Virus record (IMG/VR): IMGVR_UViG_3300006793_000026
Span: 4,956 to 68,955 of that record
From: a virus
Direction: 5' to 3' (one strand)
DNA: 64,000 nucleotides
Positions within the stretch are counted from its first letter, which is position 1. Each line of letters begins with the position of its first letter. Below the pieces are notes generated by a model, which was not told the origin of the DNA, searched no databases, and saw only the letters and a list, made by a program, of their open reading frames with translations. The translations under genes and the position numbers were made by a program. This document shows, piece by piece, positions 46,688 to 59,938 of this stretch.

Positions 46688-48091
46688 ATGCAACACAAAA
46701 GTAAACTTGATCAGCTCCTTGAAAATACTCAAGGAGCACTAAGCGAAGACGAAATCGAAGTCTACGGTGGTGAAGGCGAAGCTGACGCTGATATGGATAT
46801 GGGTTATGAAGATGACGAGGCAGTTGACCTCGACGCTAAAGCACCAGAATCCGCTGGAAAAGACGATCATGACTTTAAAGTCATGACCGGAGATGACGAT
46901 CTCGATGGACTAATTGATCAACTCAAAAATATTGTCGATGAGCTCGAAGGTATGGAAGATGACCTTGGTGCTGGCGATGACGAAATCGAAGTCGATGTTG
47001 AATCAGGCGACGATGAAGTAGACCTCGAGTTTGAGGACGAAGTTGAAGAAGCCAAGTGTGGTCAGCACGACGAAGACTACGGTCTAGACGAAGCTACTGA
47101 CACTGCGTCTGGTGCTGGTGATGTTGCCCCTGAGGGTGGTAAAGCATCGGGTCCAGAAGCTAAAGAAGGTGGTTCTGCTGGTAAAGCTGACGATTCTAAA
47201 GTAGCTAAAGCTGCTGATGATGAAGAAGCTATCGATGATACTATCGATGCTATTGAAAAGTCTGCCCCTGGCAAAGACAATACCGCACAGACTGGTAACA
47301 AGGTTGACGTCAAGAAAACCAACCCAGCTATCGCTGGAACTGGTGAAGGTGTCGCCGAAGTCAAAGTTGAGAACGTTGAAGTCGACCTCTCGAAAGAGAT
47401 TGCTGCAATCGTTTCCCTTGATTCTACTCTTTCTGAATCTGCACAAAAGAAGACTGCAAAGCTCTTCGAAAACGCAGTAAACAAGAAAGTTTCGATGATT
47501 AACCGGGAATTGAGTGCACAGTACACCGAACTCGTTGAGAGCCGTTGTGCTGACTTTGAAACTCAGCTGGTAGAAAAAGTTGATCAATACTTAGATTATG
47601 TTGTTGAAAACTACATGACTGATAACGCCCTTGCAATTGAAGAGGGTTTGAAAGTTCGTGTATCAGGTTCATTCCTCGAAGGCCTTGGCCGACTGTTTGA
47701 AGAGCATTACGTCTCTGTCCCATCTGGAAAAGTTGATCTTGTTGAGAAACTTGAAGGTGAGATTGAACAAGCCGAAGCTAAACAAAACAAATTGTATGAG
47801 CACGCAATCAAGCTACGTCGTGAGAATATCTCGCTCCGTAAAGCTTCTGCAGTCCGTAAGCTGACTGAAGGTATGAGTGCTGTTGAGGTTTCTAAGTTCA
47901 AGACTCTTGTTGAGAGTGTTGAGTACAAGAGCCAAAACCAATTTGTCAAAGCTATTGAAGCTGTAAAAGCAACACACTTTATCAACGAAGATGTTGCTAC
48001 ACCTGAACCGCAAGAGTTTGAAACCCTTGCTGAAGAAACTAAAGCCTCATCTATGGATAAGTACGTAAGTGCAATCCGTAGGTTCAAATAA
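46688..48091 (+). CDS. gp22: prohead scaffold gp22
   Basis: Highly acidic; LSE....K...LFE.AV, VD.YLDYVVE, AIE.G, F.EHY..VP, M..Y..AI. Confidence 0.9.
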   Translation: MQHKSKLDQLLENTQGALSEDEIEVYGGEGEADADMDMGYEDDEAVDLDAKAPESAGKDDHDFKVMTGDDDLDGLIDQLKNIVDELEGMEDDLGAGDDEIEVDVESGDDEVDLEFEDEVEEAKCGQHDEDYGLDEATDTASGAGDVAPEGGKASGPEAKEGGSAGKADDSKVAKAADDEEAIDDTIDAIEKSAPGKDNTAQTGNKVDVKKTNPAIAGTGEGVAEVKVENVEVDLSKEIAAIVSLDSTLSESAQKKTAKLFENAVNKKVSMINRELSAQYTELVESRCADFETQLVEKVDQYLDYVVENYMTDNALAIEEGLKVRVSGSFLEGLGRLFEEHYVSVPSGKVDLVEKLEGEIEQAEAKQNKLYEHAIKLRRENISLRKASAVRKLTEGMSAVEVSKFKTLVESVEYKSQNQFVKAIEAVKATHFINEDVATPEPQEFETLAEETKASSMDKYVSAIRRFK

Positions 48092-48111
48092 TCTAACTAG
48101 GAAAAAGAAAA

Positions 48112-49443
48112 ATGAAAACTACAGATCTTTTGATCGAAAAGTGGTCGCCGGTTCTGGATGCTCCAGAAGCTGGTCAGATCCAAGATCACTACCGTAAGAG
48201 CGTAACTGCTCAAATCCTCGAAAACCAAGAGAAAGCCTTTGCTGAGCAAGGCATGATCAACGAAGCAGTTCACGGTTCTTCTGTCTCTAACGGCGGCGTT
48301 GAGAACTGGAACCCAATCCTGATCAGCCTCGTACGTCGTGCGATGCCTAACCTGGTTGCTTATGACATTGCTGGTGTTCAGCCAATGTCTGGTCCAACTG
48401 GCCTGATCTTCGCAATGAAATCACGTTACGGTGCTAACAACTCTGGTGTTGAAGCTCTGTTCAACGAAGCTGACACAGACTTCGGTGGTGCAGGTACGCA
48501 CGCTGGCGATTCTTCTTCGCTGGTAACTGGTGCTGGTGGCGCAACTGACGTTGGTGCTGGTGGTTCTGGTACAGGTGACGACATTGCTGATAACTTTGGC
48601 TTCGGTACCGGTATTGCTACCGGAACTGGTGAGGACCTTGGTTCTGGTTCGACTATGAACGAAATGTCTTTCTCAATCGAAAAAGCAACCGTTACTGCGA
48701 AAACACGCGCGCTCAAAGCTGAGTACACGATGGAAATCGCACAGGACCTGAAAGCAATCCACGGCCTCGACGCTGAAGCTGAGCTTGCTAACATCCTGTC
48801 GACTGAAATCTTGGCTGAAATCAACCGTGAAGTTGTTCGTACGATCAACTCGAAAGCTAAGCTCGGTGCACAGACTGCTAACGTCACGACTCCAGGCGTA
48901 TTCGACCTGCACACTGACGCAGACGGTCGTTGGTCGGGTGAGAAGTTTGCTGGTCTCCTGACACAGCTTGACTTCGAAGCCAACCAAATCGCGAAAGAAA
49001 CACGTCGCGGTAAGGGGAACTTTGTTCTTTGTTCGTCGAACGTTGCAACTGCTCTTCACATGAGCGGCATGCTTGCGTACACTCCAGCCCTTAACACGAA
49101 GCTGGACGTTGACGATACAGGTAACACCTTCGCAGGTGTCCTGAACGGCAAGATCAAAGTTTACATCGATCCATATGCGACTGTTGATTACGCAACTGTT
49201 GGTTACCGTGGTACGAGCCCGTATGACGCTGGTATGTTCTACTGCCCATACGTACCTCTGACGATGGTTCGTGCTGTTAACGAGTCTACCTTCCAGCCAA
49301 AAATCGGATTCAAAACCCGTTACGGTATGGTTGCTAACCCGTTTGCTGAACCTGCAGCTGCAGTTGACAACACTGGTGCGGACCGTAGCAACGTCTACTT
49401 CCGTATCTTCCGCGTTGCAAACCTGCTGAACGCTGGTGCATAA
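48112..49443 (+). CDS. gp23: major capsid protein gp23
   Basis: KW.PVL, LISLVRR.MPNL.AYD..GVQPM.GPTGLIFAM, HGLDAE.EL, YCPYVPL, FQPKIGFKTRYG. Confidence 0.98.
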   Translation: MKTTDLLIEKWSPVLDAPEAGQIQDHYRKSVTAQILENQEKAFAEQGMINEAVHGSSVSNGGVENWNPILISLVRRAMPNLVAYDIAGVQPMSGPTGLIFAMKSRYGANNSGVEALFNEADTDFGGAGTHAGDSSSLVTGAGGATDVGAGGSGTGDDIADNFGFGTGIATGTGEDLGSGSTMNEMSFSIEKATVTAKTRALKAEYTMEIAQDLKAIHGLDAEAELANILSTEILAEINREVVRTINSKAKLGAQTANVTTPGVFDLHTDADGRWSGEKFAGLLTQLDFEANQIAKETRRGKGNFVLCSSNVATALHMSGMLAYTPALNTKLDVDDTGNTFAGVLNGKIKVYIDPYATVDYATVGYRGTSPYDAGMFYCPYVPLTMVRAVNESTFQPKIGFKTRYGMVANPFAEPAAAVDNTGADRSNVYFRIFRVANLLNAGA

Positions 49444-51958: not shown

Positions 51959-52465
51959 ATGAGTGAAGATACTGAAAAAAAAGAATGGCCTGAAGTATAT
52001 GATGAGCGGATGATTAAGATCCTTACTCTATCGTCCGGTGAAAAGATTATTACGTACGTAAGAGAACTCGGTGAGTACGGACAATATATTTGTGAGAGAC
52101 CATTTACGGTTTGTGCGGATCTTAAAGAGGGTGAGTACTTCCTAACCCAGTTCTGTCCATACGCAGATACTTCAGTACCATTTGTATTCCAGACAGCAGG
52201 AGTTATTGGAGTTGCCAATACGACAGCAGACTCTCGAGCTCATTACTTCCGGTGTATTAGAGAAGAAGTTGTGGCTGAAGCTGCACAAAACGGAACTATT
52301 GATGAGAATGCAGACTTTGGTGTTATGATGGAACAGTTACAGGAACAGTTATCGACTGCACTTGGTCCTAAAAATGACGTCGGGTTTTTTGAATCTTCCT
52401 CTGACACTGATGGTGATAACGTTGTAGATCTCTCTAATTGGTCACCTGATACTAAACCTAACTAA
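51959..52465 (+). CDS. hypothetical protein (Sm-like N-terminus, usual uvsW-downstream gene)
   Basis: IKILTLSSGEKII motif; alternative GTG start at 51953. Confidence 0.65.
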   Translation: MSEDTEKKEWPEVYDERMIKILTLSSGEKIITYVRELGEYGQYICERPFTVCADLKEGEYFLTQFCPYADTSVPFVFQTAGVIGVANTTADSRAHYFRCIREEVVAEAAQNGTIDENADFGVMMEQLQEQLSTALGPKNDVGFFESSSDTDGDNVVDLSNWSPDTKPN

Positions 52466-52468
52466 TAC

Positions 52469-52730
52469 TATAAATACTAATTCAGGTGCCTTGATGCTAT
52501 ATCAAGTGCACCTGCAATGGTAACTCTATTCTATTACCCCAACTCTATATACTATACCCCTGACCGTATCAGAGATAAGTAACTGAATAACCAGAATAAC
52601 AGTAGTTATTTAACGTTGTCTTGAAGGTATCTTTACGATTATGTTCGTTACACGATTATGTATACAAGTTTGCGCCAAAAAACCGCAGTTTTTACCCAAC
52701 TATTTTATTACAAATTCGTAATACTCCAGA
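52469..52730 (+). ncRNA. candidate late non-coding transcript
   Basis: Orphan TATAAATA 52469-52476, then a hairpin at 52483-52514; no ORF until the next early promoter. Confidence 0.35.
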
Positions 52731-52743
52731 CCGCAATTAACTG

Positions 52744-52772
52744 TGTACAAACACGGTAATTCGTAGTATAAT
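52744..52772 (+). promoter_or_regulatory. early promoter
   Basis: TGTACA-17nt-TATAAT. Confidence 0.85.
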
Positions 52773-52803
52773 GTATATAAGGTTATACACAAGGAAAAAA
52801 AAT

Positions 52804-53214
52804 ATGATACAATTAATGGGATGGGTAGTCGCCATCGTAGGCTTAGCAGCGCTTGGACATCTTATATCCCAACTCGCAAAAGCTACATGGGATGTAATGA
52901 TTGCTGGATTCAGAGGTGCTTTCGGGCTCATGGTACTTCCAGCATTGATGATTATAGTCGCGATTATGTTCTTCCATCGTCGTAAGGTCAATTACGATAC
53001 GTCTGAATCATGGGATGTGGTATACCGCTTTCTTGTGATTACAATGCAACTTGCATTATGCATACTTTTAATTATGGTAGGAACCGCGATAATCACAGGA
53101 TTCCAGTCGGGTGAATACGTACTTTGTTTCCAGGATCCAACAACTCCCGGCAGAGAGGTGCTTATGAAAGACGAATTTGGTAAGCCGTTTTGTATGAAAG
53201 ACTGGAGAGGCTAA
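52804..53214 (+). CDS. three-TM membrane protein
   Basis: AAGGA SD; three hydrophobic helices. Confidence 0.65.
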   Translation: MIQLMGWVVAIVGLAALGHLISQLAKATWDVMIAGFRGAFGLMVLPALMIIVAIMFFHRRKVNYDTSESWDVVYRFLVITMQLALCILLIMVGTAIITGFQSGEYVLCFQDPTTPGREVLMKDEFGKPFCMKDWRG

Positions 53215-53221
53215 TTAACTG

Positions 53222-53250
53222 TGTACATTACTTTAAGAACGTGTTATAAT
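53222..53250 (+). promoter_or_regulatory. early promoter
   Basis: TGTACA-17nt-TATAAT. Confidence 0.85.
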
Positions 53251-53287
53251 AATATTATGATGAACACTTACATACATGGATCACAAT

Positions 53288-53848
53288 ATGGCACGATCTA
53301 AAAAGAAGCCTGAGCACTACGTCGATAACGCTAAGTTTACCCAAGCAGTCCATGAGTACGTTATGGCCTGCCGCGAAGCTGAAGAGTGTGGTGAAGACGT
53401 ACCACCTGTCACTAACTATATCGGTGAGTGTTTTTACAAGATTGCAACCGGACTAACATACACTCGTAAATTTATACGTCGTACCTACAAAGAAGAACTG
53501 GCGATGGATGCGATTGAAGACTGTCTCAAGCGTATACGTAATTACAATATCGATGCATCAACACGTACTGGTAAACCAAATGCGTTTGCGTACTTTACCC
53601 AGATTTGTTATTACTCGTTCCTTCGTACCGTTGAACGTCATAACAAAGAGTTACGTAAGAAGCTTCGGTTTATCGAGAAGACCGCAATCGAGATTGGTGC
53701 ATCAACTGAGTACGGTGACACTAACAAAGTCCTAGAATATCTTGACGAGGTACGAGCTCCATGGGAGAACGCAGTACCACAGCCAAAAAAAGAAGAACCA
53801 AAACCTAAGGTTGAAAAGGCCAAAGGTCTGGAGAAGTTTGCCAAATGA
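53288..53848 (+). CDS. gp55: late sigma factor gp55
   Basis: HYVDN..F, YIGECF.KIA, D.IE.C, NAFAYFTQICYY.FLR. Confidence 0.93.
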   Translation: MARSKKKPEHYVDNAKFTQAVHEYVMACREAEECGEDVPPVTNYIGECFYKIATGLTYTRKFIRRTYKEELAMDAIEDCLKRIRNYNIDASTRTGKPNAFAYFTQICYYSFLRTVERHNKELRKKLRFIEKTAIEIGASTEYGDTNKVLEYLDEVRAPWENAVPQPKKEEPKPKVEKAKGLEKFAK

Positions 53849-54912
53849 CACGTGTTGCTATTCTCAACGATACTCATGCCGGTGCTCGTAACTCGTCGGG
53901 TATCTTTATCGGCTATCAAGAGCGTTTCTATACTGACATATTCTTTCCGTACCTTCGTGAACACGGTATCGATCGTATCCTACACCTCGGTGACTACTAT
54001 GAACATCGTAAGTTTGTAAACTTCAAGGTCCTAAATGCTAATCGTACTCACTTCCTTGAGAAGTTGCGTGAGTACAATATTACTATGGACATAATTCCAG
54101 GTAACCATGACGTCACGTATCGTAATACAAACGACCTATGTTCCCTCAGTGAGCTGATGATTGGCTTTGACGATGTGGTTAATATTCACATGAAGCCAAC
54201 CGAACTGAAGTTTAGTGAGACCGATCAGAAGATCCTTATGCTTCCATGGATCAACAGTGAGAATGAACACTATACCCTCAAATGTATCGAACAAACCGAT
54301 GCCAAGATCTGTTTAGGTCACTTCGAGTTCTGTGGCTTCGAGATGTATCGTGGTGCTATCTGTCATGAAGGTATGGATATGAAGCCATTCGGCAAGTTTG
54401 ACTCGGTGTACTCTGGTCACTTCCATACGAAGTCGTCTAATGGTCATATCATGTACCTCGGATCGCAAATGGAATTCACCTGGGCTGACTGTGAGGACCC
54501 TAAGTACTTCCACATTCTTGACCTTGAAGACGGTCAATTGACAGCAGTAAATAATCCACTCACGTTGTTTACCAAAGTAACCTATGACGACGAATCCTTC
54601 GAATATGCTGACTTTGACTATAGTATCTTCGATAGACAGTTCGTCAAGGTTGTGGTTGCAAACAAAACTGATCGTCATCAGTTTGAAGACTTTATCGCCA
54701 ATGTCCAGCTACGTAAGGTATACGACCTCAAAATCGTAGAGTCATTCGAAGGTGTTAAGGTGACTGATGACGACGAGTATACACATTTCGAAGAGACAAG
54801 CGAGTTGATATCACAATATGTGGATGCGATCGACACTCTACTTGATCGTGACCTACTTAAGACCCAACTAAAAGAACTATATAATGAGGCACTCCATGCA
54901 GAACAACTTTAA
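53845..54912 (+). CDS. gp47: recombination nuclease gp47 (Mre11-like)
   Basis: DTH.G, LGD, GNHD, PWI, GHFE, SGHFH. Confidence 0.94.
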   Translation: MTRVAILNDTHAGARNSSGIFIGYQERFYTDIFFPYLREHGIDRILHLGDYYEHRKFVNFKVLNANRTHFLEKLREYNITMDIIPGNHDVTYRNTNDLCSLSELMIGFDDVVNIHMKPTELKFSETDQKILMLPWINSENEHYTLKCIEQTDAKICLGHFEFCGFEMYRGAICHEGMDMKPFGKFDSVYSGHFHTKSSNGHIMYLGSQMEFTWADCEDPKYFHILDLEDGQLTAVNNPLTLFTKVTYDDESFEYADFDYSIFDRQFVKVVVANKTDRHQFEDFIANVQLRKVYDLKIVESFEGVKVTDDDEYTHFEETSELISQYVDAIDTLLDRDLLKTQLKELYNEALHAEQL

Positions 54913-55267
54913 GTCAGGCGTCAAATATGACGGAGGAAAACCTATGATGAGTCTAGTACCGCCTAGAGCATTGCGTGAAACAGCTAAGGTCCTTACATTT
55001 GGGGCACAAAAGTATGCACCTGACAATTGGCGTAAGCTCGATAATCTACAAGGTCGTTACCTTGATGCTGCACTGCGTCATATTAACGAGTTTCAGACTG
55101 GTACAATGGTCGACGAAGAGTCGGGTTGTCCTACTCTGGCCCATGCCATTTGTGACCTCATGTTTGTCCTTGAGGATCTTCTTATGGAAGAGTCAGAGCC
55201 AAAGACCGATCGGGAGACCGACGTTAACAATACCATTATGAAGTTAAGCGAACTACTGGATGATTAA
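54896..55267 (+). CDS. dATP/dGTP diphosphohydrolase-like protein (DUF5664)
   Basis: G.K.D.GKP..SL.P, V.TFGA.KY..DNW, RY.DA..RH, D.ESG...LAHA. Confidence 0.8.
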   Translation: MQNNFKSGVKYDGGKPMMSLVPPRALRETAKVLTFGAQKYAPDNWRKLDNLQGRYLDAALRHINEFQTGTMVDEESGCPTLAHAICDLMFVLEDLLMEESEPKTDRETDVNNTIMKLSELLDD

Positions 55268-55268
55268 T

Positions 55269-56993
55269 ATGTCAATTGTGTTTAAGACCCTACGATGGAA
55301 GAACTTCTTATCGACAGGTGACAATTTTACCGAGATCAATTTCCTTAAGTCACCGAAGACCCTTATCGTAGGTGAAAACGGTGCTGGTAAGTCTACTATG
55401 CTTGATGCGTTGAACTATGTACTGTTCAACAAACCTCACCGTAATATTAATAAACCGCAACTTATTAACTCGATCAATGAAAAGGGTCTTGTGGTTGAGA
55501 TCGAGTTTACGATCGGCCGTAATGACTATAAAGTTATTCGTGGTCATAAACCAGGTATCTTTGAGATTTATCACAACGGTAACCTCATTAATCAAGCTGC
55601 TTCGGTTCGTGATTATCAGGTCCACCTTGAACAGACCATCCTGCGCCTTAACTACAAGTCATTTAACCAAGTGGTTGTTCTTGGATCGTCATCGTTCGTT
55701 CCGTTTATGCAGTTACCTACTGGTCAGAGACGCCAGATCATCGAGAATCTACTTGATATAGATATCTTTACCAAGATGAACCAACTGCTACGTGAGTCAC
55801 ATAGTATTCTGAAAGAACAACATCGTGATAATACTACCAAGTTAGAGGTGATACGTAACAAGATCAATGTTCAAAAGAAGTACATTCACGACCTTGAGCA
55901 ACTTAATAAAGGTCTGATTGACGAGAAGAGAGCTGAGATCGACAAACTGTTTATCGATCATGATAACTATGACGCATCAGTTGCCAAGATACAAAAGAGA
56001 GTTGATGCTGGTAACGATGAATATGTACGTCGTATGGACTCACTTCAAAACAAAATGGACGCTGAACGCAAGACGCTTTCAGGCCTCGACGGCGAAATCA
56101 AGACATCGAAGAAGACTATTAAGTTCTTTGAGCAAAACGATACGTGTCCTATCTGTACTCAAACCGTTGAGCCTGAGCTATCTAAATCTGAGATCAAACG
56201 CCACCACGATTGTATCGAAGAGTTGACTAATCAGAAGACCAACATCGGTGGTACCATTGATGTTATTGCAGGTAACATGGATAAGTTAAATGCAGTACGT
56301 ACTAAGATCGTTGAAGAAGAGAACAAACTACGTAGCTATCAAGAAGAGATGCGTATCATTACTCGTCGTATCAACGGGTTGAATCAAGACATTGCTAACC
56401 TTCAAGAGAAGGGTGGTGACGTTAAAGCTGCTACTCGTGACCTTCGTGGCTATGAGGCTGATCAAGAAGACATCAACCTTGAAATACGTGACATCAATGA
56501 ACAGATGAACTATAACGCTCTGAAGTTCGAGATGTTAAAAGACACCGGTATCAAGACGAAAATCATTCGTAAGTACAGACCAGTCATTAACAAACTGATC
56601 AATGAGTACTTACAAGTTCTCGACTTCTTCGTACAGTTCACTCTTGATGAGAACTTCAAGGAGATTATCAAGTCAAGACATAGAGACATATTCTCTTACT
56701 CGTCATTCTCAGAAGGTGAGAAGTCAAGAATCGATTTGGCATTACTCTTCACATGGCGACAGATTGCAGCTATGAAGAACTCGATGTCAACCAACCTACT
56801 TATCCTTGATGAGACATTCGATTCTAGTCTCGATACTGATGGCGTTGACAACCTACTCAAGATCCTTGACACTCTTGAAGAGGGTACTAACGTGTTTGTT
56901 ATATCTCACAAGAAAGATATGTTAGACTCTAAGTTCCCACGTAAGCTGAACTTCAAGAAGATTAATAACTTTAGTGTCTGTTATGAGGATTAA
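55269..56993 (+). CDS. gp46: recombination ATPase gp46 (Rad50-like)
   Basis: WKNFLSTG, GENGAGKST, CPIC hook, FSEGEK, LILDE.FD, VISH. Confidence 0.95.
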   Translation: MSIVFKTLRWKNFLSTGDNFTEINFLKSPKTLIVGENGAGKSTMLDALNYVLFNKPHRNINKPQLINSINEKGLVVEIEFTIGRNDYKVIRGHKPGIFEIYHNGNLINQAASVRDYQVHLEQTILRLNYKSFNQVVVLGSSSFVPFMQLPTGQRRQIIENLLDIDIFTKMNQLLRESHSILKEQHRDNTTKLEVIRNKINVQKKYIHDLEQLNKGLIDEKRAEIDKLFIDHDNYDASVAKIQKRVDAGNDEYVRRMDSLQNKMDAERKTLSGLDGEIKTSKKTIKFFEQNDTCPICTQTVEPELSKSEIKRHHDCIEELTNQKTNIGGTIDVIAGNMDKLNAVRTKIVEEENKLRSYQEEMRIITRRINGLNQDIANLQEKGGDVKAATRDLRGYEADQEDINLEIRDINEQMNYNALKFEMLKDTGIKTKIIRKYRPVINKLINEYLQVLDFFVQFTLDENFKEIIKSRHRDIFSYSSFSEGEKSRIDLALLFTWRQIAAMKNSMSTNLLILDETFDSSLDTDGVDNLLKILDTLEEGTNVFVISHKKDMLDSKFPRKLNFKKINNFSVCYED

Positions 56994-57081
56994 TACGTCT
57001 CAACCTGATAGGTATAAGAATAAAAATGTCACAATTGGACAATAAAATTGTCTATATTAATACAAGTGACTATCGTGATTG

Positions 57082-57357
57082 TATAAATAAATACAATCGG
57101 TCATTAATAGCAGATGATCGATTACTAAAAGTGTTATACCCCAACCAAGGATCGGACTCCTCCCTATATTATTACCTCACTATTGGCTGAACATTTTTAT
57201 GTATCGTCCTGAATTGAACTGACATTATTGTGAATTGAAATATAACGGAGTTGACGGAAAACGATATTATCCATGGGGACCAAGCGGATAATATCCAGTG
57301 TAACACCTTTACTCGTACCGAGTCGGGAAGAGGGGACAAAAAAGGTTCCCTCTTTTT
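57082..57357 (+). ncRNA. candidate structured late non-coding RNA
   Basis: TATAAATA 57082; 5' hairpin; long-range stem 57126-57139/57298-57311; perfect 10-bp stem 57263-57272/57286-57295; terminator 57327-57357; no + strand ORF in the track. Confidence 0.6.
57327..57357 (+). terminator. intrinsic terminator
   Basis: GAAGAGGGGAC...GTTCCCTCTTTTT. Confidence 0.8.
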
Positions 57358-57368
57358 GCACTTTATGG

Positions 57369-57397
57369 TGTACAAACCCTCCAAAACGTGATATGAT
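57369..57397 (+). promoter_or_regulatory. early promoter
   Basis: TGTACA-17nt-TATGAT. Confidence 0.8.
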
Positions 57398-57433
57398 ATA
57401 ATTATAGTTGAATAACAATGGAGCTACTATATA

Positions 57434-58102
57434 ATGACCCAACTATCTCAAGACGTGATCGGTGTACTTACCAACTTTGCGTCTATTAACCCAAACTTCG
57501 TATACGAGTCTGATAAACCACTCGGTACGATTTCACCTACTAAATCGATTGTCGCTCAGTATACGGGTGACGCAGAAGTCTTTCCGGTTGACTTTAGTAA
57601 GTACGGTATCTACGACCTTAACGAGTTTCTTACGGCTCTCGGCCTGGTCGGTGATAACGCCAACCTAGACTTCTCTGAAAAGTCTGTTTCGATAAATGGT
57701 GATTCTGGATCCATTGAGTACTTCTTCTCACGTCGTGAGACTCTTAACGTCTCTGTTGTATCGATCACAATGCCAGGTGAAGAACTTAAGTTCAACATCA
57801 CACAGGCCGAGCTCGGCCAACTGAAAAAGGCATCATCTGTATTTGGTCACAAGAAGGTACAAATCTCATCGACTGACGGTGTCGTCACTGCTCGGGTCTG
57901 CGATCCAGCAAACGCTACTGCAGCATCGTTCTCTCTGACTATCGAAGGTGCAACTCAAACCGAAGACGTTAAGTTCGTCCTCGATATTGATAACCTCAAG
58001 TTGGTAAAAGGTGACTATGAAGTGACTTATGCAAAGGCAGGTATTACACTCTTCGATAACGCAGCTGAAAACATGCGTTACTGGATTGCTGTTGAACGAT
58101 AA
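57434..58102 (+). CDS. gp45: sliding clamp gp45
   Basis: L.NFASIN, GIYDLNEFL, NLKL..GDY.V, YWIA.E. Confidence 0.93.
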   Translation: MTQLSQDVIGVLTNFASINPNFVYESDKPLGTISPTKSIVAQYTGDAEVFPVDFSKYGIYDLNEFLTALGLVGDNANLDFSEKSVSINGDSGSIEYFFSRRETLNVSVVSITMPGEELKFNITQAELGQLKKASSVFGHKKVQISSTDGVVTARVCDPANATAASFSLTIEGATQTEDVKFVLDIDNLKLVKGDYEVTYAKAGITLFDNAAENMRYWIAVER

Positions 58103-58128
58103 ACCTCTCTTTGTGAAAGACACATATA

Positions 58129-59064
58129 ATGATGAATGAACTATGGGTCGAGCGGTATCGCCCGGCAACCGTCGCTGACACTATCCTCCCAGCGGCCCTA
58201 AAGAAAACGTTCCAAGGCATGGTCAACAATGGCGAGATCCCTAACATGATCTTGTCAGGCTCTGCGGGTCTAGGTAAAACTACTTTGGCCCGTGCCTTGT
58301 GCAACGAACTCAACCTTGACTATATCTTTATCAACGGATCCGATGAACGTAATATCGAAACACTCCGTAACAAGATACGTCAATTTGCATCCACCGTTTC
58401 TCTGGCCGGTGGTATGAAGGTCGTCATCCTTGATGAGGCCGATTATCTAAACCCACAGTCAACTCAACCAGCCCTTCGTGGTTTTATGGAAGAGTTCCAC
58501 AACAACTGTCGGTTTATTCTTACGTGTAACTTTAAGAACAAGATCATTGACCCACTCCACTCTCGGTGTGCAGTCTATGACTTTACGTATGACAGTAAGG
58601 GTCTTCCTCAGCTGTGCGCGCAGTTCTTTAAGCGTCTGACAAATGTCCTCGATGAGAACACAATTCCATATGACAAGAAGACTGTCGCTGCTCTGATTCA
58701 GAAGCACGCACCTGACTGGCGACGTTGCCTTAACGAATGCCAAAGGTACTCTGCATCCGGTCAGATCGATGAGGGTATCCTTGCCAACATGGAACTTGAG
58801 AACTTCGAGGTGCTCATCAACGCACTCCGTACCAAACAGTTTAAGACCATGCGTAAGTGGGTGTCTCAAAACATCGACCTCAGCCCTGTGACTGTGATGC
58901 GTAAGCTGTATGATACCATGAGTACGTACGTTGAGCCTGAGTCAACACCACAACTGATTCTCATATTGGCTGAGTATGATTACAAAAATGCCTTTGTGGC
59001 TGATCACGAACTCAACTTGGTGGCTTGTCTCACTGAAGTTATGGGTGGTATCAAATGGAAGTAA
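58129..59064 (+). CDS. gp44: clamp loader large subunit gp44
   Basis: LWVE.YRP, G.GKTT, ILDEADYL, QPALRGF.EEF, PLHSRC, PD.RR. Confidence 0.95.
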   Translation: MMNELWVERYRPATVADTILPAALKKTFQGMVNNGEIPNMILSGSAGLGKTTLARALCNELNLDYIFINGSDERNIETLRNKIRQFASTVSLAGGMKVVILDEADYLNPQSTQPALRGFMEEFHNNCRFILTCNFKNKIIDPLHSRCAVYDFTYDSKGLPQLCAQFFKRLTNVLDENTIPYDKKTVAALIQKHAPDWRRCLNECQRYSASGQIDEGILANMELENFEVLINALRTKQFKTMRKWVSQNIDLSPVTVMRKLYDTMSTYVEPESTPQLILILAEYDYKNAFVADHELNLVACLTEVMGGIKWK

Positions 59065-59136: not shown

Positions 59137-59547
59137 ATGTTATTTGATTACTTAAATAATATAAATAATGGTAATGGGGATATTATGTCCACGGCTGATG
59201 ACGAGAAAGCATACTCTGCTTTTATGGTCAACCGCGGTTTATCTTATTTCCCAGACACGGTTCTACATGCTAATTTGATGAATATACACCACCATACCGA
59301 CAGTCGGTTACAGTATGACTTTTTGAGGTCCTCGATCAGAAAGAAAAAGAGATATTCAAAGTGGTTCAAGAGCAGTGAAGATCAAACGTTGACGGTTATA
59401 ACTGAATACTATAACTGTTCAATGCAAAAAGCTAAGGAGTATAGCAATATACTATCAGACGAAGACATAAAGGCCATTTCAGAGATGATCGATCGGGGTG
59501 GCTTTAGTCGTAAGAAAGCAAAAAAAAATGATCGACGATCGAATTGA
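59137..59547 (+). CDS. gp62: clamp loader small subunit gp62
   Basis: FDYLN.IN, Y..F.VNR.LS.F.DT, QYDF....RK.KR.SKW, YY. Confidence 0.9.
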   Translation: MLFDYLNNINNGNGDIMSTADDEKAYSAFMVNRGLSYFPDTVLHANLMNIHHHTDSRLQYDFLRSSIRKKKRYSKWFKSSEDQTLTVITEYYNCSMQKAKEYSNILSDEDIKAISEMIDRGGFSRKKAKKNDRRSN

Positions 59548-59938
59548 ATGGTCCCCCAAGGACATGTTAGAGATTACTCTGAACGAACCCGATGACTTCC
59601 TCAAAGTAAAAGAGACCCTCACTCGGATTGGCATATCATCTAAAAATACGCGTAAGCTGTATCAATCATGCCATATCTTACATAAACAGGGACGATATTT
59701 TATTTGTCACTTTAAGGAACTTTTCATGCTAGATGGGAAGTCTGCAAACTTCTCGGAAGAAGATCTGTTCCGGCGTAACACAATCGCTACTTTGTTAGCT
59801 GATTGGGGCCTATGTGAGTTAATGAATGGGTATCCTGCGAAGGATGAGCGAGCGCCTATGCGTTCAATCAAAATTATATCACATAAAGCTAAGCGAGACT
59901 GGGAACTAGTTCCAAAGTATCGTATTGGTAATTCGTAA
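59528..59938 (+). CDS. regA: translational repressor RegA
   Basis: PDDFLKV.ETLTRIG, LYQSCHILHKQG.Y...HFKELF.LDG, RRN.I..LL..W, W.L.PKY.IG. Confidence 0.95.
   Translation: MIDDRIEWSPKDMLEITLNEPDDFLKVKETLTRIGISSKNTRKLYQSCHILHKQGRYFICHFKELFMLDGKSANFSEEDLFRRNTIATLLADWGLCELMNGYPAKDERAPMRSIKIISHKAKRDWELVPKYRIGNS

Follow-up and report, generated by a model that had tools for sequence, protein, structure and literature searches.

What occupies the unusually long interval between gp46 and gp45 in the genome of an uncultured, marine T4-like phage? The phage is represented by a 68,955-base IMG/VR virus record (IMGVR_UViG_3300006793_000026), approximately 38% complete, from which a stretch of 64,000 nucleotides (nt), referred to here as the window, was analysed. 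In the window the gp46–gp45 gap spans 440 nt (56994–57433). Across 147 loci for which the sequence upstream of gp45 was usable, the gap was shorter than 100 nt in 138, 130 nt in one and 193–212 nt in six; a gap of 440–445 nt was present only in the window's own copy and in one full relative, L002, an 8.6-kb IMG/VR contig with a gp45 protein 99% identical to that of the window. The answer that we tentatively favour is a free-standing gene for a late non-coding RNA, about 263 nt long (57095–57357, + strand), lying in a non-coding module of about 370 nt and confined to one narrow lineage. According to this proposal, a gp55-type late RNA polymerase would start some 6 nt after the late promoter box TATAAATA; a hairpin at the extreme 5′ end and a strong intrinsic terminator would bracket and stabilise the transcript; and a long-range helix and a 10-bp hairpin would frame a strictly conserved, unpaired A/U-rich core (57194–57250) with two UGAAUUGAA repeats, which may be the working surface of the RNA, binding another RNA or a protein in trans during late infection. 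A late non-coding RNA had been put forward for this gap in an original prediction made from the sequence without database searches; its observations are partly confirmed and largely right, and its interpretation is partly supported.

The gap is non-coding, because frame-breaking insertions and deletions (indels) and stops in the + frames are combined with an absence of family matches and of homologues beyond close variants. Despite the 99% identity of the gp45 proteins, five indels (1, 2, 1, 10 and 1 nt) distinguish the gap of the window from that of L002, and read-derived variants show further 1-nt indels; all three + frames are stop-rich in both sequences. In Pfam and PHROGs no match fell below E 0.01 (best Pfam E 0.013, best PHROG E 0.037). 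The original prediction, which had rightly called the gap non-coding, had also stated that it holds no + strand open reading frame (ORF); this was incorrect in that an ORF of 54 amino acids (aa) at 57026–57190 overlaps the unit, though it is not conserved. It is 54 aa long in the window, as against 30 aa in L002 and 33 aa in P0042, a third variant, and a weak AGG upstream of it, resembling a Shine-Dalgarno (SD) sequence, is lost in L002 by reading. When this ORF was searched with phmmer against 1.84 billion representatives, eight matches were returned at E ≤ 0.001: seven were multi-stretch matches in unrelated proteins of 480–1305 aa, which we read as spurious, and the other was the 33-aa variant P0042. 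With its unstable length and no homologues beyond close variants, the 54-aa ORF was rejected as a gene. Two minus-strand ORFs (70 and 81 aa), named at the outset as something that could account for the region, were likewise rejected as coding, given frame-breaking indels and no family or wider homologues; a search with the 81-aa ORF matched only itself. It is also unlikely that the gap is a relic of the 78-aa ORF or the CxxC ORF found at this site in relatives (see below), as there was no similarity on reading, no formal alignment having been made.

The features expected at the two ends of a late transcription unit are present. The T4-type late promoter box TATAAATA lies on the + strand at 57082–57089, where direct reading of the sequence bore out the prediction, and is kept in L002; with the box-to-start distance taken from T4 late transcription (PMC2988020), the transcript would start near A57095. 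TATAAATA is a genuine signal in this phage, with 23 copies in the window, of which 22 are on the + strand, versus 2.0 expected. In 19 of these 22 cases an ORF starts no more than 140 nt downstream; of the other three boxes, one is intragenic and two are intergenic, at 57082 and at 52469, and both intergenic boxes are followed by a strong hairpin at +1/+2 (−11.3 and −18.9 kcal/mol respectively). The region of the 57082 box is itself one copy of a 19-nt direct repeat (57047–57065 and 57078–57096, 84% identical), the upstream copy of which has CTATATTA in place of TATAAATA and is diverged in L002. The 5′ hairpin of the putative RNA (57095–57123, + strand), predicted previously with arms ATCGGTCAT (57096–57104) and ATGATCGAT (57114–57122), was recovered in the minimum free energy (MFE) fold, −11.3 kcal/mol being the value for the first 45 nt; in L002 a G-C/G.U swap of positions preserves its pairing. 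At the other end an intrinsic terminator (57324–57358, + strand), also foreseen, has a 10–14 bp stem and five U and folds at −16.0 kcal/mol in the window and −19.2 kcal/mol in L002, with a G-C/G.U swap that again preserves pairing; it was missed by a simple scanner. This terminator would also end gp46 transcripts.

Immediately 3′ of the terminator is the early sigma70-type promoter of gp45 (57369–57402, + strand), as anticipated, consisting of TGTACA, a 17-nt spacer and TATGAT with TG, and an overlapping TATAAT; it is followed by a GGAG SD sequence at 57420–57423 and the gp45 ATG at 57434. Promoter and leader together (57358–57433) show 0 mismatches in 76 positions compared with L002. As gp45 has a conserved early promoter of its own, the unit is therefore not simply the proximal leader of gp45. 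A motif of GTGTACA, 14–22 nt and TATAAT occurs three times in the window (52743–52772, 53221–53250 and 57368–57402) versus 0.01 expected, and GTGTACA..TATAAT also precedes gp45 in relatives at 38–63% gp45 identity (2938–3000 in L084, and in the gaps of L093, L090 and L015).

Between these ends, the rate of change against L002 singles out the 3′ half of the unit. The neutral baseline was taken from the 4-fold degenerate sites of gp46, gp45 and gp44 combined, with 94 mismatches at 453 sites (52/198, 20/117 and 22/138 respectively). The element as a whole falls below this (33/271, Fisher p = 0.003), as does its 3′ half at 57194–57357 (14/163, p = 0.0003); within the latter, 57194–57233 has 0 mismatches in 40 positions, a result with a probability of 6e-4 at a neutral rate of 17%. 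This is the larger part of a conserved, mostly unpaired core (57194–57250, + strand), which includes TTATGTA at 57197–57203 and two TGAATTGAA repeats (57210–57218 and 57231–57239, 21 nt from start to start); L002 has its 10-nt insert at the 5′ edge of this core. Upstream, the spacer from gp46 to the late box (56994–57081), in which the non-conserved 54-aa ORF starts, changes at about the neutral rate (17/88 mismatches, 19%), and the fastest-evolving part of the locus is 57114–57153 (13/40).

Several helices around the core are maintained. The 14-nt closing helix pairs 57126–57139, the 3′ end of which overlaps a TACCCCAAC motif (57137–57145), with 57298–57311 at 13 of 14 positions; the 12 Watson-Crick pairs and one G.U pair originally described are there, together with an A × C mismatch (57130/57307) that had gone unmentioned. 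Other parts described at the start and present on the + strand are ACTCC/GGAGT, which belongs to a helix (H3) pairing GACTCC at 57155–57160 with GGAGTT at 57247–57252 and recovered in separate predictions for the window and for L002; TATATT/AATATA and TCAC/GTGA; a perfect 10-bp hairpin (57263–57295; 57263–57272 with 57286–57295) with a 13-nt loop containing GGGG, invariant in L002; and a small hairpin, ACTCG-TAC-CGAGT (57311–57323), found in the MFE fold and also invariant in L002. TGGGG (57274–57278) and CCCCA (57139–57143), proposed to form a pseudoknot, both exist as sequence; in L002 the GGGG and CCCC of this candidate are kept and its U-A pair is lost. The CTCCTCCC run regarded as resembling an anti-SD sequence is likewise present, at 57157–57164, but its role as an anti-SD motif is not supported, the run varying in length among variants (CTCCTCCC, CTCCCCC and CTCCCC).

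When the window and L002 were folded independently, the MFE structures contained the same helix set: the 5′ hairpin, the closing helix, (G/A)ACTCC/GGAGTT, a short AU helix, the 10-bp hairpin, ACTCG/CGAGT and the terminator. Five helices align in register (39 pairs); in these, all 78 of 78 cells are paired, and the five changes are all one-sided interconversions of G-C, G.U or A-U, such as the G.U to A-U change in H3; one-sided changes of this G.U type would preserve pairing only in RNA of the + strand. By hand, the closing helix of L002 shows a double change from A-U to G-C (57128 A>G with 57309 T>C), and 57307 C>T repairs the A × C mismatch; the upper part of the helix re-pairs there in a shifted register (GAAGTG/CACTTC plus TTAC/GTAA). 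In a more divergent, read-derived variant from sequencing run X22, the C-G pair at the top of the 10-bp stem has become U-A through the compensatory changes 57272 C>T and 57286 G>A. Taken singly, the 10-bp and 13-pair helices are improbable as chance products: in 300 shuffles, 57123–57326 yielded a perfect 10-bp helix five times and one of 13 pairs twice. The + strand unit as a whole, which has MFE and centroid structures that are multi-branched (closing helix, inner arm and 10-bp hairpin), folds at −71.3 kcal/mol with a z score of −2.9, none of 200 shuffles being as stable; the z score of the minus strand is −1.4. For the consensus fold of the window and L002 over 57095–57358, z was −4.6 (0/150 column shuffles) and the structure conservation index (SCI) 0.77 versus 0.64 (3/150).

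With respect to expression, a weak hint of transcription came from an RNA-seq metatranscriptome run, X24, in which a 222-nt contig with a depth of 5 covers approximately 57109–57320, inside the predicted RNA. This contig is made up of 57165–57320 plus 56 L002-like letters upstream, and a second X24 contig lies in gp45. Holes in coverage (57071–57192 in runs X11 and X13; 9 of 30 bins covered in X24) were not interpreted.

A number of observations weigh against an RNA gene of the kind proposed. The ~186-nt structured domain that the original prediction had outlined is not supported by folding energy: although the whole unit beats its shuffled controls, the domain alone (57126–57311) has a z score of −1.24, and on the alignment the interior at 57123–57326 gives z −0.81 (30/150) and SCI 0.63 versus 0.62 (72/150). 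As the interior is no better than shuffles, it is the 5′ hairpin and the terminator that account for the fold signal. Moreover, among 45 arbitrary windows of 276 nt taken from this genome, two have z ≤ −2.9; these unusually stable control windows are 46701–46976 and 48101–48376, with z −3.4 each. The five in-register helices contain no double-sided covariation, with two full sequences available and a shuffle control that was uninformative, and when all MFE pairs of the window were placed on a MAFFT alignment, 22 of 29 changed pairs were broken in register; these broken pairs are partly misalignment, and the TATATT/AATATA and TCAC/GTGA helices have genuinely changed in L002. The 5′ half of the unit (57095–57193) changes at the neutral rate (19/97, p = 0.89). 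The X24 library may contain DNA, and its contigs give neither strand, ends nor level. Complementary 10–13-mers to + strand transcripts of the window occur at the shuffled expectation (4 versus 4.7 for k = 11). Finally, the phyletic range is tiny: the element was present only in the window's own type and close variants, for the alignment-based carrier scans among the matches listed, and nhmmer with the element found no other match in 164 loci and the rest of the window.

Given these points, we considered whether the gap might be a mostly functionless spacer, a decaying relic of shuffled-in DNA at a known variable site, in which only the terminator (serving gp47–gp46 transcripts) and the gp45 promoter work, the late box and inner helices being incidental. 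The site is variable: in addition to the 138 of 147 gaps below 100 nt, the six of 193–212 nt hold a small CxxC...CPWCG ORF, and relatives with 63% gp45 identity have a 78-aa membrane-protein ORF. The sequence of stem-loop, early promoter, SD and ATG reproduces the layout of the promoter-early stem-loop (PeSL) elements tied to indels in T4-like phages (PMC4122927). The neutral rate of the 5′ part of the gap and of the 5′ half of the unit, the failure of the core domain to fold better than shuffles and a GC content of 35% versus 46% for the window all agree with such a spacer, and base-composition arithmetic puts the probability of a chance TATAAATA in 440 nt this AT-rich at about 5%. Set against this are the 0/40 mismatches of the core and 14/163 of the 3′ half compared with roughly 17–21% at 4-fold sites; a 5′ hairpin that would have no role in a spacer and yet is maintained by G.U swaps; two helices each rare by chance (5/300 and 2/300 shuffles); and a second ORF-less late unit of like layout at 52469–52745. 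On balance we consider a functionless spacer less likely than the RNA gene, of which it is the strongest rival.

A cis-acting late leader, in which the late box would supply gp45 mRNA late in infection through partial read-through of the terminator and the structured 5′ region would tune stability or termination, is a further alternative and to us an improbable one. Late box and gp45 share a strand, the box being 351 nt 5′ of the gp45 ATG; the unit at 52469 likewise has an early promoter on its 3′ side, with a membrane-protein gene and the late sigma factor gene gp55 beyond it; and gp45, as late-transcription co-activator, and gp55 are needed throughout late transcription (PMC2988020). Nevertheless, a transcript from the late box would meet a conserved terminator (−16 to −19 kcal/mol, five U) before reaching gp45, the promoter and leader of gp45 are separately and perfectly conserved, and no antiterminator alternative was identified. 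The X24 contig in the element stops at 57320 and is not joined to gp45, a weak counterpoint because contigs do not show ends.

The two largest ORF-free stretches in the window, also the most AT-rich, are the unit in the gp46–gp45 gap and that at 52469–52745. In the latter, TATAAATA comes directly after the stop codon of a 170-aa ORF and is followed by 294 nt with no ORF; there is a hairpin at +2 (−18.9 kcal/mol), a fold z score of −3.5 and a weak hairpin of terminator type whose loop is A-rich. On its 3′ side are an early promoter of the same type as that of gp45, then the membrane-protein gene and gp55. Motifs common to both units are TACCCCAAC, TATACCCC and TTATGTAT, and exact copies of TACCCCAAC in the 64 kb are found only in these two; TTATGTA, a motif picked after the fact and rare in the window (4 copies versus 9.8 expected), has two of its three + strand copies in them. 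A blastn comparison of the units aligned nothing beyond short motifs and the early-promoter block common to both (E 0.003), and nhmmer with the 52469–52745 unit found only itself; homology between the two is therefore unproven.

Both units have in common a late box, a +2 hairpin, a (U)UACCCCAAC motif and UUAUGUA in an unpaired A/U-rich stretch. That the two are diverged siblings, a pair of late decoy RNAs ahead of the gp45 and gp55 genes, is a speculation to which we attach only a slender chance. As decoys, both RNAs could sequester either the phage's translational repressor of the RegA type or an RNA-binding protein of the host, and so reset late translation; the RegA-type version is suggested because UUAUGUA is part of the T4 RegA consensus and of the rIIB operator. 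In T4, the gp45 and gp44 genes are both RegA targets. The start regions of these genes in the window (57425–57437 and 58124–58136) share ATATAATGA across the ATG, and this could be the RegA operator of the phage. PMC3014915 lists gene 44 of T4 as a RegA target and places UUAUGUA in the rIIB operator and in the consensus AAAAUUGUUAUGUAA obtained by SELEX. Together the two late units hint at non-coding late transcripts beside genes of the late-transcription machinery (gp45 and gp55), a situation for which no case is described for T4 in those parts of the reviews that were available.

A site acting at the level of DNA, in which the TGAATTGAA direct repeats of the core would bind a phage or host protein for regulation, replication or recombination, has in our view a slighter prospect still. 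Exact 9-nt repeats 21 bp apart, about two helical turns, within 40 invariant bases of an AT-rich region that is unpaired in RNA folds would suit such a site; on the other hand there are just two copies, TGAATTGAA is not enriched elsewhere (21 matches at ≤ 1 mismatch versus 24.3 expected), no candidate binding protein was identified, and the G.U-type changes in the flanking helices would be sensible only for + strand RNA.

The decoy of host sigma70 RNA polymerase resembling 6S RNA, to which the original prediction had assigned a rod with a bubble, is hardly credible: only size range, late timing and the closing helix speak for it, whereas the predicted fold is a multi-branched, three-way junction with a floppy interior and neither rod nor central bubble, the interior helices are not conserved, and cmscan of 56900–57500 on both strands with 4227 Rfam families at E ≤ 10 gave four unrelated matches (E 4.3–10), all far below gathering thresholds, and no 6S model. 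Two other identities were rejected. For a miniature inverted-repeat transposable element bounded by the 14-nt inverted repeat there was no second copy by nhmmer in the window and 164 loci, and no flanking duplication; a 12-mer of the closing arm has 12 matches at ≤ 2 mismatches versus 7.2 expected, which is chance level beyond its partner. For tRNA or tmRNA, ARAGORN found 0 genes in 52300–57600. The only match at gathering level to Rfam in the 64-kb window is a tRNA gene at 2042–2115.

The surroundings of the proposed RNA gene are those of a T4-like phage. The gene order is gp46 (ending at 56993), the gap, gp45 (from 57434), gp44, gp62 and regA (59498–59938). On the + strand, gp46 (55260–56993) is a 577-aa ORF for a Rad50-like recombination nuclease subunit, with tblastn matches to gp46 of relatives; gp45 (57434–58102) encodes the sliding clamp, as judged by Pfam PF09116 on an identical protein and tblastn matches to an annotated sliding clamp. 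The identity of gp45 to that of any deposited phage is at most 37%, marine and aquatic myoviruses being nearest, and the sequencing runs with this stretch are marine or estuarine metagenomes.

The same junction carries other cargo in relatives. Three loci with gp45 identities of 62.5–63% have a predicted 78-aa membrane protein between gp46 and gp45 (L084 2701–2937, L164 1238–1474 and L165 178–414), and the element is absent from them. A small conserved CQxC...CPWCG ORF, resembling a zinc ribbon and below the 60-aa cut-off used, is positioned just 5′ of the gp45 promoter in seven loci with 37–40% gp45 identity (L093, L090, L017, L046, L037, L015 and L091). The element itself was sought more widely: blastn in its 'distant' setting against 50,697 phage records gave no match, pattern scans of IMG/VR gave only the L002/L003 contig, and scans of GTDB genomes found none. 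A clade-leader pattern returned 17 stretches, of which only three were true relatives (L003, L173 and L176), and a related-locus search in IMG/VR with P0002 (gp45 identity 82%, on 104 contigs; P0003 and P0004 have 77% and 74%) found none. From this narrow occurrence and the varied cargo at the site, the unit is therefore best seen as a lineage-specific insertion 5′ of a conserved promoter, and the gp46–gp45 junction appears to be a spot that accepts different cargo. If the RNA is real, this junction of T4-like phages can host either small protein genes or an RNA gene, and a lineage-specific late RNA joins the short list of phage-encoded non-coding RNAs; its practical value is limited by an uncultured phage and a very narrow distribution of the element.

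How, then, does the unit compare with known systems? With 6S RNA (Rfam RF00013 and relatives) it has in common a non-coding nature, a comparable or somewhat larger size and ends joined by a helix, and it differs in having no model match, rod or central bubble. Bacterial trans-acting small RNAs that end at a Rho-independent terminator are transcribed from a promoter of their own and combine a conserved single-stranded segment with a U-tailed terminator hairpin. At the level of sequence the unit resembles them in its own promoter, lack of an ORF, intrinsic terminator and conserved unpaired core; by contrast, about 263 nt is long for the class, and complementarity to the phage transcripts of the window does not exceed expectation. 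The PeSL (Comeau, Arbiol and Krisch, 2014; PMC4122927) differs from the unit in that it covers only the last ~110 nt, leaving the late box, 5′ hairpin, core and 10-bp hairpin unaccounted for, and in that within the 64 kb the promoter half alone was seen to repeat (three copies). Its likeness is to the stem-loop, sigma70-like early promoter, SD and start codon at 57324–57436; and just as PeSL composites have been linked to modular shuffling in T4-like phages in that paper, the gp46–gp45 locus is indel-polymorphic among relatives, with insertions as well as replacements.

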